Virus record (IMG/VR): IMGVR_UViG_2728369554_000022
Coordinates: 1 to 17,352 of that record
Length of the DNA stretch: 17,352 nt
Source of the DNA: a virus
Lineage: Duplodnaviria > Heunggongvirae > Uroviricota > Caudoviricetes
Strand: one strand, 5' to 3'
Shown here: one piece after another, positions 2,309 through 16,982 of the stretch
How positions within the stretch are numbered: position 1 is the stretch's first letter
How the letters are laid out: each line of letters begins with the position of its first letter
The notes under the pieces: model-generated
What the model was told of the DNA's origin: nothing
The model's input: only the letters and a program-made list of their open reading frames with translations
The model's database searches: none
Program-made: the position numbers and the translations under genes

Positions 2309-2595
2309 AAATATCCCTCCTTTCTCCAGATTTCTTGTGTGCGAAAAACACCTTCTGCATGCATCAGGCGTAATTCTTCTTTGGTGTAATCGCTGGTTTT
2401 TAGCCGCCCGTCGATTAGATCGTGGCATGAGCTACAGGCAATCGCCGCCTGCATATCGTGTGGTTTTGTCGCTATTCCGCACGTTCCCGCCAGTCGGTAA
2501 TGCGCCAGCACAGACGTTTCCGGATCGTGATTGCAGTAGCCAGGAATTCTGACGGTGCACATCTGCCCCCGCGCCGCTTTACGTAAATCCACCAT
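2305..2595 (-). CDS. ybcO: YbcO-like putative nuclease (DUF1364 family), 96 aa
   Basis: ATG at 2595 overlaps upstream stop (TAATG). Pattern DLRKAARG..C.VRIPG.CN..PETSVLAH..CSSCHD matches recalled DLP12 YbcO; same length. Confidence 0.55.
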   Translation of the reverse strand: MVDLRKAARGQMCTVRIPGYCNHDPETSVLAHYRLAGTCGIATKPHDMQAAIACSSCHDLIDGRLKTSDYTKEELRLMHAEGVFRTQEIWRKEGYL

Positions 2596-3194
2596 TACGC
2601 AAACTCCAGCAGCTGCGCGGCCACATTTTCGACTTGTTCCGGAGAGGAAAATTTACGGAACAGAATCCAGTTCCACAGCACATTCAGAACAGATTTATAA
2701 ACCTGCTGAAACTCGGTTTCGTCCATATTCGCAAAAGCGATGGATTTCGCCCGACGCCCATGGCTACCGTCCGGATAAAAATGTTCGGTGTAAAATCCAG
2801 CCTGAATGGTTACCCACTCGCGAAAAGCCTCAAACGACTTTAGCAATGCCGTATCCCGGGTTCTGCGAGTCGCAACGGTGTTAAGGTATTGCTCTGCAGC
2901 ATCACTAAGGGCTGGCGTATGTTCCCGACCTACTGATTCGCACAGGAAATCAACGAAACCGGACACCAGTTCTCGTTCGCGAGGCGTGATCACCCCACCG
3001 ACCGGAGTCCAGTAATCGAATCCCAGTTGCAGGAGTTTGAAAAAACGCTTGTGGAATGCGTAGTTACGCACACGCTTAAAGTCTGCGTGTATCCACTCAC
3101 CTATTTTGATTTGATGCAAAAAATCGCAACTCTCCGGCGTCGCCGGGAGAAGTAATCCGGAAGAGGTTTGTTTGACCAGTTGTATATGCGCCAT
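2595..3194 (-). CDS. nin-region phage protein of unknown function (possibly DUF1367 family), 199 aa
   Basis: ATG at 3194 with GGAGA upstream; the track's 3206 start is TTG. Family assignment is a recollection only. Confidence 0.45.
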   Translation of the reverse strand: MAHIQLVKQTSSGLLLPATPESCDFLHQIKIGEWIHADFKRVRNYAFHKRFFKLLQLGFDYWTPVGGVITPRERELVSGFVDFLCESVGREHTPALSDAAEQYLNTVATRRTRDTALLKSFEAFREWVTIQAGFYTEHFYPDGSHGRRAKSIAFANMDETEFQQVYKSVLNVLWNWILFRKFSSPEQVENVAAQLLEFA

Positions 3195-3253
3195 TGCTGT
3201 CTCCAATGGCGCTGTAGGTTGCCAGTTGTTCAGGCTGGCTTACGAATTATAAC

Positions 3254-3427
3254 TCATTCCCGAATCACCTTGAAACCGAGCCTTTCAAGATATTCAATGA
3301 ATGCCTCGATAGATAAAATTACATGATTATCAGGGATTAACGTTGCGTAGATAACTTCCCCATTCTCAACGCGCACAGCAAAGAGGCCATTTTCACTAAA
3401 AATTTCACGTAATTCTTCAATTTTCAT
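3254..3427 (-). CDS. Small hypothetical protein (57 aa), absent from the ORF track
   Basis: ATG at 3427 with AAGGA 8 nt upstream, TGA at 3256..3254; translates to MKIEELREIFSENGLFAVRVENGEVIYATLIPDNHVILSIEAFIEYLERLGFKVIRE. Confidence 0.4.
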   Translation of the reverse strand: MKIEELREIFSENGLFAVRVENGEVIYATLIPDNHVILSIEAFIEYLERLGFKVIRE

Positions 3428-3547
3428 CAACAGAATCCTTCCAGATAAATAGCACCCCCCTGTTCGGGGTCCATCCCTCTTCTCCCTGCGCGCTACTTAA
3501 GTATTTTTGATTCTATTCCGGCATCGTCCATAACTTCAAACGTATTG

Positions 3548-3579
3548 AAAATAAAAACAAAAACCCGCCGAAGCGGGTT
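3548..3579 (-). terminator. Rho-independent terminator of the hok transcript
   Basis: Minus strand: AACCCGC-ttcg-GCGGGTT followed by TTTGTTTTTATTTT. Confidence 0.65.
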
Positions 3580-3647
3580 AAGTGCGGGTGCGTTGAAGAT
3601 GCCTGACACATCATAGGCGGCGAGGGATTTCTCCCTCGCCTGGTCTC

Positions 3648-3803
3648 TTACTCCTCAGGTTCGTAAGCTGTGAAGACAGCGACCTCCGTCTGGCCGGTTC
3701 GGATTCGTACCTCGCAGAGGTCTTTCCTCGTTACCAGTGCCGTCACTATGACGGTTAAACAGATGACGATCAGGACGATTAACATCGCCTTTTGCTGCTT
3801 CAT
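3648..3803 (-). CDS. hokD: Hok/Gef-family type I toxin (51 aa)
   Basis: MKQQKAMLIVLIVICLTVIVTALVTRKDLCEVRIRTGQTEVAVFTAYEPEE, near-identical to recalled HokD/RelF; AAGGAGA upstream of ATG 3803. In-frame upstream ATG at 3860 gives a 70-aa mok-like extension. Confidence 0.8.
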   Translation of the reverse strand: MKQQKAMLIVLIVICLTVIVTALVTRKDLCEVRIRTGQTEVAVFTAYEPEE

Positions 3804-3975
3804 AGCCTGCTTCTCCTTGCCTTTCGGCACGTAAGAGGCTAACCTACATTTGTGAGACATAGATTGGGCCTCAGATTAATGTTAAGCGTCTTGCAGGACG
3901 CGTAATGTTAACTGGGGCTTTTCTCTATCTGCCTTTGGTGTTCATGCCCGAGGCAGATAGCCTCAAGCACCCGCA
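3804..3975. promoter_or_regulatory. hok leader with candidate antisense (Sok-like) region and structured elements
   Basis: Direct repeat TAATGTTAA (3876-3884, 3903-3911) flanking hairpin GCGTC-ttgcag-GACGC; 10-bp stem CTATCTGCCT/AGGCAGATAG at ~3937-3972. Sok promoter not defined. Confidence 0.35.
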
Positions 3976-8329: not shown

Positions 8330-8752
8330 TCAATGCACTACGACAGAATCACCGGGCGACCCACCACCGCTGAAATGTGCTTTCCGGTAAACGGCCTGGA
8401 CTGCATCATCATGCGCATCAATTGCCGTACTCAACGCTTCCTGCGCCGCCAGTAATGCACGGCGTTCCAGGGTATCGAAGATGCAGAGTCGGTGACGCAG
8501 CTCGCGCGGAAGAATTGCCAGAACCGCAGGGATCAGTGTCTGAATTTTTTCCCTTTGCGCTTTCGTTTCACCTTTTAACCAACGGTGATAGATGTTCTGC
8601 TGATTATTCCAGTCCTTGCCTGGTACCAGGGGCAATTCGCCGCCCCCCTGGCGCAGATATTCTTCAGTAATTGCATTGGCTACCCATGCCTGCCCTTTTT
8701 CAGCGGCCAGGGCTAACAGCACTGATTCGATGTGCTCATGCCTGATTTTCAT
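8330..8752 (-). CDS. ydaT: YdaT-like protein (140 aa)
   Basis: ATG at 8752 with AGGAG upstream; length and position after the YdaS-like gene match the Rac ydaS-ydaT pair. Confidence 0.6.
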   Translation of the reverse strand: MKIRHEHIESVLLALAAEKGQAWVANAITEEYLRQGGGELPLVPGKDWNNQQNIYHRWLKGETKAQREKIQTLIPAVLAILPRELRHRLCIFDTLERRALLAAQEALSTAIDAHDDAVQAVYRKAHFSGGGSPGDSVVVH

Positions 8753-9011
8753 GAATCAACTCCTGTGCATTTTGTGTGTTAGCCTTACATCCAACAGGTA
8801 AACCATCGGTCGGATTCGGGTAGATATCAGGCCGGAGTTCATGAGGTGTAACCTCGAAATTCGTAGCCTCTGCGATACGCAATACCTTTTCAGGGCTTAA
8901 CTGACTACGTCCAGTAGCAACGAGGCTAATCATTGATTGCGAACAACCAGCCAGCGCGGCCAAACAAGACTGTCGTACACGATTTTTTTTCAAATATTCA
9001 TCTAATGTCAT
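8736..9011 (-). CDS. ydaS: YdaS-like Cro-type HTH regulator (91 aa)
   Basis: ATG at 9011 with AAGGTGA upstream (track start at 9038 is TTG); HTH-like segment; divergent from the repressor gene. Confidence 0.55.
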   Translation of the reverse strand: MTLDEYLKKNRVRQSCLAALAGCSQSMISLVATGRSQLSPEKVLRIAEATNFEVTPHELRPDIYPNPTDGLPVGCKANTQNAQELIHENQA

Positions 9012-9115
9012 AAGGGTCACCTTAGTAATGTTCGCCAAAATATTAACTATACTAATTTAAATGATCAATACTTATATCAGTTTGAGATTATGAGCTGTGT
9101 TCATAAGATGGTGGT
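9012..9115. promoter_or_regulatory. Divergent promoter/operator region between ydaS-like and racR-like genes
   Basis: 104-bp AT-rich intergenic region with palindrome TTATGA-gctgtgt-TCATAA (~9090-9108) and TGATCA (9064-9069). Confidence 0.4.
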
Positions 9116-9580
9116 ATGAGAAGAAAACGCGAAGAAATCGCATCGCCAGAAGCTACGCAGCGTCTACGCGGAATCTGGGATGCAAAAAAAAGAGAGCTCA
9201 AATTGACTCAGGAGCTTGCTGCCGAGCTAATGGGCTTTGAGACGCAATCTACGGTTAGCCACTATCTCAACGGAAAGGCTCCACTTAACACTGATGCGGC
9301 ATTAAAATTCGCAGTATTGCTAAGAGTTAAGCCTGAAGACTTGAGGCCTGATTTAGCTGATCTGATGAATTACGTCCGTTCCTCTGGAACTTATGACGAA
9401 AGTTTCGAAGGCGAAGGGTGGCGGATGGTTAACAAGCAACAAGCTGATTTACTGGATCTTTTTGATATCCTCCCCGAATCAGAAAAAGCAAAACTAATCG
9501 AAAGGCTTAAAGGCCAGAATGAACTCTACAAAGAAGCGTTTGAAAATATGCTGGCAGCTCAGAAACGCATAAAGAAATAG
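9116..9580 (+). CDS. racR: RacR-like prophage repressor (HTH), 154 aa
   Basis: HTH-like LTQELAAELMGFETQSTVSHYLNG; divergent from ydaS-like; followed by a strong terminator. Confidence 0.6.
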   Translation: MRRKREEIASPEATQRLRGIWDAKKRELKLTQELAAELMGFETQSTVSHYLNGKAPLNTDAALKFAVLLRVKPEDLRPDLADLMNYVRSSGTYDESFEGEGWRMVNKQQADLLDLFDILPESEKAKLIERLKGQNELYKEAFENMLAAQKRIKK

Positions 9581-14898: not shown

Positions 14899-15093
14899 AT
14901 GAGATATGACAATGTTAAACCATGTCCATTTTGTGGTTGTCCATCAGTAACGGTGAAAGCCATTTCAGGATATTACCGAGCGAAGTGTAACGGATGCGAA
15001 TCCCGAACCGGTTATGGTGGAAGTGAAAAAGAAGCACTCGAAAGATGGAATAAACGAACCACTGAAAATATTAATGGAGGCTTTCATGTATAA
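14899..15093 (+). CDS. ralR: RalR/Lar restriction-alleviation protein (64 aa)
   Basis: MRYDNVKPCPFCGCPSVTVKAISGYYRAKCNGCESR..., zinc-ribbon-like, recognised as Rac Lar. Confidence 0.8.
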   Translation: MRYDNVKPCPFCGCPSVTVKAISGYYRAKCNGCESRTGYGGSEKEALERWNKRTTENINGGFHV

Positions 15094-15274
15094 AATTACC
15101 GCTACAATTGAAAAGGAAGGTGGCACTCCTACTAACTGGACAAGATATTCAAAATCTAAACTAACGAAATCGGAATGCGAAAAAATGCTCTCAGGGAAAA
15201 AAGAAGCAGGCGTTTCCAGAGAGCAGAAAGTAAAACTGATAAATTTTAATTGCGAGAAACTTCTGTCATCGTGA
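15086..15274 (+). CDS. ydaC: YdaC-like small protein (62 aa from this start)
   Basis: ATG at 15086 with GGAGG 5 nt upstream, overlapping ralR stop; synteny with Rac ydaC. Confidence 0.55.
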   Translation: MYKITATIEKEGGTPTNWTRYSKSKLTKSECEKMLSGKKEAGVSREQKVKLINFNCEKLLSS

Positions 15275-15380: not shown

Positions 15381-15662
15381 ATGAATCTTGTGACACTCAA
15401 AACCTGGGGAAGACTCAGATATCCGGATAACCCACCATCAATATCAACGCTGAGACGATGGGCAAGGAATGGAAACATTTATCCTGCACCTGAACTACAC
15501 GGGAGGAGTTACAGGGTGGTTCCGGAGGCTTTCTATATCAACCCAAATAAGGTTGATACCGATATAACACACCACCAGCCTAATGGGCGACAAGGGAGAG
15601 ACAGTCCGTTAATGGAGAAGTTAAAACATGCAGCGGAAAAAATACGATCCCAATTTGCCTAG
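15381..15662 (+). CDS. Excisionase (Xis-like)
   Basis: AAGAGG upstream of ATG 15381; resembles lambda Xis N-terminus; 3' end overlaps int start as in lambda. Confidence 0.7.
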   Translation: MNLVTLKTWGRLRYPDNPPSISTLRRWARNGNIYPAPELHGRSYRVVPEAFYINPNKVDTDITHHQPNGRQGRDSPLMEKLKHAAEKIRSQFA

Positions 15663-16704
15663 AAATTTAACATATCGAAGGAGAGACAAAGCATATTACT
15701 GGCGCAACCCTCTCACGAAAGAAGAATTTACACTAGGTAAAATTTCAAGAAGAGATGCAGTAGCGCAGGCAATTGAAGCAAATCATTATATATACAAAAA
15801 CTACTCTCCTGCTGCCTTAATTGAAAAACTTAAAGGGTTCGACTCATTTACTATGGCAGACTGGATTGAACGTTACAAAACGATTCTTATAAGGAGAAAA
15901 GTGTCCAGAAATACTTATAAAATTCGGGTAAATCAACTGGAGACAATAAAAGAAAAATTAGGAGGGATTTTACTGACAGAAATAACCACTCGCCATATTG
16001 CCGAGTTTCTTGATTTGTGGATTGAAGGAGGGAAAAACACGATGGCAGGATCAATGCGTTCTGTGTTATCTGATATGTTCCGCGAGGCCATTGTTGAAGG
16101 ACGTATATCTCAAAATCCAGTAACGCCAACAAGAGCACCGAAAATAGTAGTTACAAGAGAACGGCTGAAACTAAAGACATACAACTGCATCAGGGAGGCA
16201 GCAGATCAACTTCCGGCATGGTTCCCATTAGCTATGGATTTAGCCCTTGTAACAGGACAACGTCGCGAAGACATAACGAATATGCGGTTCAGTGATATTT
16301 ATGATGATCGTCTCCACATCAGGCAAATTAAGACAGGAATGATGATTGCTATCCCCCTGTCACTCAGCCTTCCTGTCGCTGGTCTACGGCTTGGTACAGT
16401 AGTTGAACGGTGCCGCCTGGTAAGCCGGGGAGATTATCTAATCAGTGCCGGGATTAGAAAAAACAGCCCTGACGGCAGCATTCACCCGGACGGCCTGACA
16501 AAAAAATTTGTCGCAGCCAGAAAATTAACAGGTATCCAGTTCAGTGAAAACCCACCAACTTTTCACGAGATCAGAAGTCTGGCTGGACGATTGTACAAAG
16601 AAACATGTGGAGAAGAATTTGCTCAGCGTCTACTTGGCCACACATCGGAGAAGACAACAAAAATGTATCTTGATGAGAGAGAAAAAACGTACTTACTGCT
16701 CTGA
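15628..16704 (+). CDS. Lambda-family tyrosine integrase (358 aa)
   Basis: Aligns by eye with lambda Int (N-terminal arm-binding region, [25 protein letters not shown], tyrosine in KMYLDE). Confidence 0.9.
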
Positions 16705-16751
16705 TTTTAACGTAAATGGATTGTTAAATGTATTTTGGTTGTGATATAACC

Positions 16752-16853
16752 AAAAAAGACCGAATACGATTCCTGTATTCGGTCCAGGGAAATGGCTCTT
16801 GGGAGAGAGCCGTGCGCTAAAAGTTGGCATTAATGCAGGCTTAGTTGCCTTGC
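16752..16853 (-). ncRNA. sdsR: SdsR (RyeB) sRNA
   Basis: Minus strand reads GCAAGGCAACTAAGCCTGCATTAATGCC...GACCGAATACAGGAATCGTATTCGGTC-TTTTTT, matching recalled SdsR with its terminator; sigma-S-like -10 TCTATTCTTAA just upstream. Confidence 0.8.
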
Positions 16854-16982
16854 TCTTTAAGAATAGATGACGACGCCAGGTTTTCCAGTTTGCGTGCAAA
16901 ATGGTCAATAAAAAGCGTGGTGGTCATCAGCTTAAATGTTAAAAACCGCCCGTTCTGGTGAAAGAACTGAGGCGGTTTTTTA
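16758..16982 (+). ncRNA. ryeA: RyeA (SraC) antisense sRNA candidate overlapping sdsR; 5' end uncertain
   Basis: Known bidirectional sRNA locus; candidate promoter TTGTTA (16721-16726) and TATAAC (16745-16750); terminator at 16941-16982. Confidence 0.35.
16941..16982. terminator. Bidirectional terminator between RyeA and the yebY-like gene
   Basis: ACCGCC-[CGTTCT-ggtgaa-AGAACT]-GAGGCGGT flanked by A-run and T-run. Confidence 0.6.

Follow-up and report, generated by a model that had tools for sequence, protein, structure and literature searches.

Does the gap between the hok terminator and the DUF1367 gene of a Rac-like lambdoid prophage hold a functional gene, and what might such a gene do? 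The question arises in a virus record of 17,352 nucleotides (IMG/VR IMGVR_UViG_2728369554_000022), which we analyzed at its full length and refer to as the window, and which is such a prophage. The original prediction, made from the letters alone, had placed a 57-codon open reading frame (ORF) with an ATG and a ribosome-binding site (RBS) at positions 3254 to 3427. Signals and position are as it described. The ORF is read from the minus strand, its ATG preceded at 8 nt by GGAAGGA, and it lies between the hok terminator and the co-oriented DUF1367, YbcO and Q genes (Table 1). It runs from ATG (3427-3425) to a final sense codon at 3259-3257 and TGA (3256-3254), and its product of 57 amino acids (aa) is MKIEELREIFSENGLFAVRVENGEVIYATLIPDNHVILSIEAFIEYLERLGFKVIRE. 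Here we present evidence that the ORF is, with very little doubt, a real gene, that it almost certainly encodes a reduced, one-hairpin member of the Rem family, and that its product probably counteracts, as an antirepressor, the 154-aa repressor of the same prophage, with a promoter outside SOS control driving its expression.

The ORF is maintained by purifying selection

With 74 ORFs of 55 aa or more in the window, length by itself does not set this one beyond chance. Scans of IMG/VR and of a one-genome-per-species set yielded 85 loci, 44 of which, the window included, carry the 57-codon type, hereafter the short form. Its reading frame is intact in all 44 loci (21 distinct DNA sequences), with neither frameshifts nor stops, and the ORF thus passed the test of frame conservation in relatives that had been proposed for it. 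Substitutions counted by the Nei-Gojobori method (NG86) gave a median ratio of nonsynonymous to synonymous divergence (dN/dS) of 0.20 over 141 pairs, all with a dS of more than 0.05. Relative to its most distant full-length copies, the ORF shows a dS of 0.85-1.25 and a dN of 0.12-0.18. These data show that the short form is under purifying selection and hence functional. Because the frame is kept throughout and dN/dS is this low, we regard the ORF as a genuine small gene, as its start codon and RBS had suggested.

The conservation data also bear on the start of translation. The codon preceding the ATG, an in-frame TTG in the window, varies among relatives (AAG, CTG, TTG or ATG); since the upstream TTG is not conserved, the ATG at 3427 is the start. 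Further 5', GGAAGGATTC is kept in nearly all leaders, at loci of the short form and of the longer Rem proteins described below alike.

We found the short form in E. coli, E. albertii, Salmonella enterica and one metagenome-assembled genome (MAG) labelled Proteobacteria, with the copies in Salmonella and the MAG showing 54-77% identity. At thresholds of at least 90% nucleotide identity and at least 80% coverage, the ORF is present in 101 of 5,426 complete E. coli genomes.

The exact 57-aa protein is found on 584 public contigs, where it is labelled 'hypothetical protein'. The original prediction had called the ORF unannotated, which is right in that public records give it no function, but does not hold for RefSeq. 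There, the Prokaryotic Genome Annotation Pipeline (PGAP) covers only the first 26 codons (the equivalent of 3350-3427) and labels them a pseudogene, 'incomplete; missing C-terminus'. Each of the three genomes checked is annotated in this way, namely RM11911 (whose DNA is 100% identical), O157:H7 F6294 and 2014C-3061 (NZ_CP044313.1, NZ_CP038372.1 and NZ_CP027548.1). Our guess is that the protein evidence behind this call is the long form of Rem. On the RefSeq reading, the ORF would be a decayed remnant of a long rem gene, and its similarity to long Rem is indeed weak past residue 26. The conservation data, however, contradict the pseudogene annotation: besides the intact frame and the low dN/dS, the gene has been kept at considerable divergence in Salmonella and the MAG, its C-terminal part aligns with long Rem and with the dinI-linked homologues described below, and truly broken copies (L053/L054, P0051, P0065) look different. 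We therefore consider decay highly improbable. A pseudogene label on an intact, selected gene hides the short form of rem from pangenome and prophage analyses.

Among the disrupted copies, rem is broken after residue 29 in L053 (10000-10282) and L054 (1492-1774). The upstream repressor in L053 has 238 aa and, judged by its length, is LexA/CI-like; the disruption of rem there fits the loss of an antirepressor that was no longer needed.

A reduced member of the Rem family

The ORF matches phrog_340 (E 1.7e-17), as does K-12 Rem (E 4.4e-21). When phage records were searched by tblastn, one match was returned, a 58-aa gene of phage Rac-SA53 that is 70% identical and is annotated 'Rem, similar to Rem of Qin prophage'. 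K-12 Rem itself (b1561, 83 aa) is encoded at the same place in Qin, after hokD. The original prediction had pointed to rem from this position and had suggested tblastn and profile searches; the phrog_340 and Rac-SA53 matches show that the positional guess was right and that the two proteins are homologous.

A protein search recovered 63 homologues, all with the precomputed Pfam accession PF27490.1. Most have 57-58 aa, and the longer ones are either upstream-extended gene calls or an 86-95-aa long form. The Rem family is narrow: a profile search recovered only 39 clusters from 1.84 billion representative proteins. In local scans of the ORF, neither Pfam, in a copy without PF27490, nor NCBIfam yielded a significant match (PASTA, E 0.11).

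Short and long forms align end to end. Residues 1-26 are identical at 65-85%, after which the long form carries an insertion of about 21-24 aa and, at its C-terminus, an additional tail; beyond the insertion, a D-x-x-I-L ... F ... L-x-x-x-G-F-K pattern aligns weakly between the two. The longer relatives have two hairpins that resemble each other, and in the hhalign comparison the single hairpin of the short form (GLFAVRVENGEVIYATLIPD) falls onto the second. Judging from these alignments, the long forms would consist of two tandem hairpins and the short form of one. About 130 bp of upstream DNA, comprising terminator, promoter, leader and RBS, are common to both forms. The full-length architecture of K-12 Rem is not reached by the ORF, and we have hardly any doubt that it is a reduced homologue within the family.

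Short and long rem genes have a near-identical promoter, leader and first 26 codons (3350-3427) and then diverge sharply (3254-3349), which looks like a mosaic junction inside the gene.

The alignments used for the AlphaFold model of the short form and for the deep search were without K-12 Rem. The model has a helix at residues 3-13, strands at 15-21 and 24-31 and a second helix at 40-49, with a predicted local distance difference test score (pLDDT) of 75 and a predicted template modelling score of 0.40. Foldseek found no match to it below E 0.5 in the PDB or BFVD, so that the fold provided no clue to function, and in a profile search no PDB sequence reached an E below 0.17. The model of the long form was too poor to use (pLDDT 53).

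The ORF occupies an antirepressor slot

The function of Rem has been addressed in K-12. According to Ragunathan et al. (2023, PMC10448788), ectopic Rem raises expression of dicBp-lacZ 165-fold and causes DicB/DicF-dependent filamentation only when Qin is present, and Rem was concluded to be a DicA antirepressor; the authors had arrived at the protein by iterated BLAST from the Gifsy-1 antirepressor GfoA. The original prediction had offered two roles for the ORF, a small regulator or an antitoxin-like protein, and the first of these agrees with the published role of Rem.

In Gifsy prophages, small proteins encoded between dinI and irsA are antirepressors (Lemire et al. 2011, PMC3121763). Their genes sit behind Rho-independent terminators and a LexA box, and the proteins bind short non-cleavable repressors, probably as A2B2 complexes, freeing them from DNA; DicA and RacR are named as members of the same repressor group (PMC3121763). 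The order in Gifsy-2 is two terminators, LexA box, dinI, gftA (73 aa) and irsA. Gifsy-2 irsA/STM1020, which comes next after gftA, and the DUF1367 protein of the window share 54% identity, so the ORF occupies the gftA slot.

A LexA-box-dinI-X-irsA module with a divergent small gene is present in four phages, SPN3UB, mEp237, SEN34 and PHB10, all of which, like Gifsy-2, have perfect CTGT-N8-ACAG LexA boxes. The small proteins are SPN3UB gp59, mEp237 gp49, SEN34_55 and the one from PHB10, and phrog_340 is matched by those of mEp237 (E 1.4e-20), PHB10 (E 1e-17) and SPN3UB (E 4.7e-6). Profile-profile comparison (hhalign) of the Rem alignment with the dinI-linked proteins gave a probability of 90.6% (E 1.3e-6, 46 columns). 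The four small proteins and the ORF product are thus homologous.

A conserved promoter and leader precede the ORF

Between the terminator and the ORF lies a predicted promoter (Table 1). A single promoter-like site is not above chance, since shuffled sequences average 1.1 such sites. Across loci, the -10 hexamer TAGAAT(C) (TAAAAT in one) is found in 35 of 35 distinct canonical upstream sequences; five loci with a different upstream region are without it. Each of about eight upstream sequence contexts supplies a TTGxxx 16-18 nt from the -10. This pattern is what a working promoter would show. A terminator stands just 5' of the promoter in most loci, irrespective of the sequence further upstream, and that of the ORF resembles the terminator preceding the Gifsy-2 LexA box. 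No match to a LexA box was found in 3434-3560 at up to two mismatches (best core 5/8), and a dinI gene is absent as well. The gene thus receives its regulatory input in another way than the Gifsy modules do.

At about 76 nt, the leader is conserved on a par with the coding sequence (promoter-leader 76-89%, coding sequence 75-81% identity). Phages of different immunity types have it in common, which makes a role as operator of the immunity repressor improbable. Its hairpin keeps the stem and varies in the loop, and some loci have CCCU...AGGG; a consensus RNA structure search of the leader did not arrive at a convincing fold, its sole result being a 4-bp hairpin in which one change may be compensatory. 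Leader 10-mers show no meaningful recurrence elsewhere in the window, so a shared operator was not found there. Such conservation of the promoter-leader region, together with the conserved hairpin, could mean that what is conserved is an element at the RNA or DNA level, be it a leader, a small RNA or an operator, and that the ORF is incidental. Substitutions within the ORF, however, are mostly synonymous or conservative, its homology at the protein level reaches proteins with little DNA similarity, and no Rfam family lies at or near threshold in 3254-3560. An incidental ORF is, in our view, extremely improbable.

The segment past the -10 (3454-3505; CTTAAGTAGCGCGCAGGGAGAAGAGGGATGG and the CCCC/GGGG hairpin) is almost invariant across different immunity types, and it could be linked to no regulator or RNA family. 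An Rfam match to isrK at 3558-3639 on the minus strand, which covers the 3' end of hok and the terminator, was rejected: at 26.7 bits it is below the cut-off of 50 and was judged a terminator-driven chance resemblance, and the Gifsy-1 IsrK locus adjoins antQ and concerns a different, larger antirepressor protein.

The form of Rem follows the class of repressor

The predicted target of the ORF product is the 154-aa repressor of the prophage. The C-terminal segment of this repressor (...QQADLLDLFDILPESEKAKLIERL...) contains the motif LLxLFxxLPxSEK and matches DicA (E 4e-6), Gifsy-2 GtgR (E 3e-4) and a 139-aa repressor type (E 2e-9). The repressor showed no similarity to K-12 RacR; the prophage has a Rac-like layout without RacR immunity.

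The motif LLxLFxxLPxSE(K/Q) is common to at least five repressor types, the 154-aa type, DicA, the 139-aa type, that of L020 and GtgR, whose helix-turn-helix regions differ. Repressors with it are found next to genes of the Rem or GftA type (9116-9580 in the window; L003, L020, L035, L090), and it may mark a dimerisation or antirepressor-contact domain.

We identified the repressor upstream of rem at each locus and counted by distinct gene-module configurations. The short form goes with repressors of the 154-aa class (67-100% identical to that of the window) at 25 loci in 13 configurations, as well as in Rac-SA53, and the long form with DicA/DicC (56-100% identical) at 24 loci in 16 configurations. 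Crossed pairings number zero among these 49 loci, and likewise zero by configuration. On distinct configurations, the association of Rem form with repressor class has a Fisher p of 1.5e-8, a value that overstates independence, as the loci are related prophages, so that the evidence is at most as strong as it indicates. Ties of the Rem form to other neighbors are far looser: the corresponding p is 0.02 for the gene 60 bp downstream of rem (DUF1367/YdfU) and 0.14 for the repressor-adjacent YdaT type. The repressor lies 3.6-9.6 kb from rem, and a link between the two that survives so much shuffling argues for a functional pairing. Exceptions are L035, L049 and L020, which are taken up below, L087 and L088, which have decayed immunity regions, and L053, the one locus with a 238-aa repressor, where rem is disrupted.

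A predicted route to derepression

Our data suggest how the short form may act. In the lysogen, the intrinsic terminator would shield rem from upstream transcription, and the gene's own sigma-70 promoter would fire on a signal that does not pass via a canonical LexA box. The 57-aa protein would then bind the 154-aa non-cleavable repressor, which is of the GfoR/GtgR/DicA class, and the repressor would leave its operators, derepressing the early operon, whose first gene is the YdaS-like one. The rem transcript may continue into the DUF1367, YbcO and Q genes.

We consider an antirepressor role in its own prophage probable for the ORF, with several findings weighing against it in addition to the relatedness of the loci. 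In PMC10448788, deletion of rem had no phenotype in the K-12 assays, the evidence on Rem appears to be genetic rather than biochemical, and derepression was demonstrated for K-12 Rem only, that is, for the long form. Comparison by hhalign with the experimentally proven GftA, which belongs to phrog_4847, was not significant (E 0.17), and it is only in position that the dinI-linked proteins resemble GfoA. A single 139-aa repressor type is paired with the short form in L035 and with the long form in L049, and L020 combines the short form with a fourth repressor type that has the same C-terminal motif. Within the short-form class, Rem falls to 54-62% identity while the repressor stays at 88-92%, so fine-scale co-variation is lacking. 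Finally, the structural model of the short form is of moderate confidence and bears no likeness to solved or viral folds.

Part of this evidence would also be compatible with a real Rem-family protein that is not the inducer of its own prophage, but acts in trans on the repressors of other prophages or has an altered or weakened function after loss of a hairpin. Cross-talk with non-cognate repressors is documented for such antirepressors: FsoA, encoded by Fels-1, acts on Gifsy-2 and is not involved in the induction of its own phage (PMC3121763). The 139-aa repressor shared by both Rem forms, the lack of co-variation within the short-form class and the K-12 deletion result point in the same direction. 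Against this alternative stand the class-level pairing without a crossed case despite module shuffling on both sides, and the purifying selection, which shows that the short form is functional. We regard this alternative as rather unlikely and favor the reading in which the ORF product lifts the repressor of its own prophage.

Many prophages of E. coli and Salmonella have short repressors that are not cleavable by RecA, and their induction is only partly understood. One such class, to which the repressor of the functional phage Rac-SA53 belongs, may have its switch in the short form of rem. As a tentative extension, which we hold possible rather than likely, one-hairpin and two-hairpin Rem could be specificity classes for different non-cleavable repressors, with a shared promoter and leader devoid of a LexA box answering a host signal. 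If so, a pathway of induction outside SOS would exist in a large group of Rac- and Qin-like E. coli prophages, and its sensor would lie in the segment of about 90 bp from the -10 hexamer to the start codon (3428-3515). The conserved promoter, devoid of a LexA box, is a concrete place to look for the rem-inducing signal, a question raised in PMC10448788. The finding offers a testable rule for the pairing of Rem forms and repressors and the correction of a recurrent annotation error.

The surrounding prophage

The prophage contains genes for integrase, excisionase, RecT and RecE, the RalA RNA, the repressor, a divergent YdaS-like gene and YdaT, then replication genes, DUF1627, DUF977, DUF551, hok, the ORF, DUF1367, YbcO, Q, two tRNAs and a holin. 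Features bearing on the ORF are given in Table 1.

The ORF adjoins hok in most loci, which raises the question of whether its protein is a partner of the Hok toxin, as antitoxin or modulator, or a component of a HicA-like toxin-antitoxin system; one JGI record names a homologue 'YcfA (HicA-like)'. The C-terminal ...YLERLGFKV... bears a superficial likeness to the N-terminus of HicA. Hok, however, belongs to the type I toxins, and the antisense RNA that controls it, Sok, is present here; the ORF lies beyond the hok terminator with a predicted promoter of its own. The distance from hok to rem varies between 0.37 and 2.2 kb; L004 and L044 have no hok, and an O157:H7 strain has doc instead. The ORF has neither a Pfam HicA match nor a PADLOC match, and no model for toxin-antitoxin or defence proteins fits it. 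We think a toxin-antitoxin role most improbable, and the antitoxin half of the original prediction is not supported.

In the O157:H7 strain F6294 (NZ_CP038372.1; L091 1-472), the gene that replaces hok upstream of the short rem encodes a Doc-family (death-on-curing) toxin; the upstream neighbor is therefore interchangeable cargo.

Elsewhere in the window, RalA, the antitoxin small RNA of the Rac RalR type I system, lies at 15092-15270 on the minus strand (Rfam, 210 bits). Two tRNA genes are located at 896-1046 on the minus strand, between the Q gene and the holin gene, and a RefSeq record with identical rem-locus DNA has tRNA-Arg and tRNA-Ile at the corresponding position. The small RNA pair SraC/RyeA and SdsR/RyeB is found at 16747-16891, about 45 bp past the integrase gene (15628-16704), and so the prophage has probably inserted beside the ryeA/ryeB locus.

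Table 1. Features of the window that bear on the ORF, its expression and its predicted target
Feature	Coordinates	Strand	Evidence or remark
Short-form Rem coding sequence, 57 aa	3254..3427	(-)	translation; phrog_340 E 1.7e-17; frame conservation
Shine-Dalgarno GGAAGGA, 8 nt 5' of ATG	3436..3442	(-)	read from sequence
Leader hairpin CCCC-loop-GGGG	3454..3470	(-)	terminator-like match
Predicted -10 TAGAAT of own promoter	3510..3515	(-)	promoter scan and conservation
Predicted -35 TTGAAG, 18-nt spacer	3534..3539	(-)	promoter scan and conservation
Intrinsic terminator AACCCGCTTCGGCGGGTT and T run	3562..3579	(-)	downstream of hok; predicted to insulate the ORF from upstream transcription
hok toxin gene, upstream, no functional tie to the ORF	3648..3803	(-)	Pfam HOK_GEF
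Sok RNA	3798-3972		Rfam, 117.7 bits
DUF1367 gene (irsA homologue), directly downstream	2595..3206	(-)	PF07105 E 2e-97; RefSeq start 3194
YbcO/DUF1364 gene	2305-2595	same as ORF	downstream
DUF1133 Q-type antiterminator gene	1766-2428	same as ORF	downstream
YdaS-family Cro-like gene, first in the operon that the repressor would control	8736..9038	(-)	Pfam YdaS_toxin and HTH_3
154-aa prophage repressor, predicted target	9116..9580	(+)	HTH_3 only, no peptidase domain

Comparison with known antirepressors

Among the closest known systems is Rem of Qin. The two share phrog_340, PF27490.1 being carried by the long-form homologues found, and both genes lie after a hok terminator and before a DUF1367/YdfU gene, with the same promoter, leader and RBS; the leaders are 89% identical. 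The first 26 residues of the ORF product are 65% identical to Qin Rem and 85% to other long forms, and the C-terminal helix and strand can be aligned as well. At 57 aa, the ORF product falls short of the long forms (83-95 aa), from which it also differs by lacking their insertion (about 21-24 aa), their second beta-hairpin and the acidic tail at their C-terminus. The pairing with a repressor also differs, in that the 154-aa type of the window takes the place of DicA/DicC and resembles DicA in its last 50 residues only (30% identity).

Like GfoA, GfhA and GftA of the Gifsy prophages, the ORF is a small gene outside the immunity region, just 5' of an irsA/DUF1367 gene and after a Rho-independent terminator, and it lies between the replication genes and irsA. 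In both cases the partner repressor, here a predicted one, is short and non-cleavable and has an LLxLFxxLP motif at its C-terminus. Unlike the Gifsy module, the ORF has no LexA box and no upstream dinI, but another conserved promoter and leader instead, and its product has one hairpin where the module proteins have two.

A more distant comparison can be made with Tum of coliphage 186 and AntC of N15. Tum (146 aa) has a DinI-like half, and both Tum and AntC are under LexA control, whereas the ORF is not. By analogy with these two (cited in PMC3121763), the ORF product may be a small protein, encoded outside the immunity region, that lifts a repressor off DNA without cleavage.

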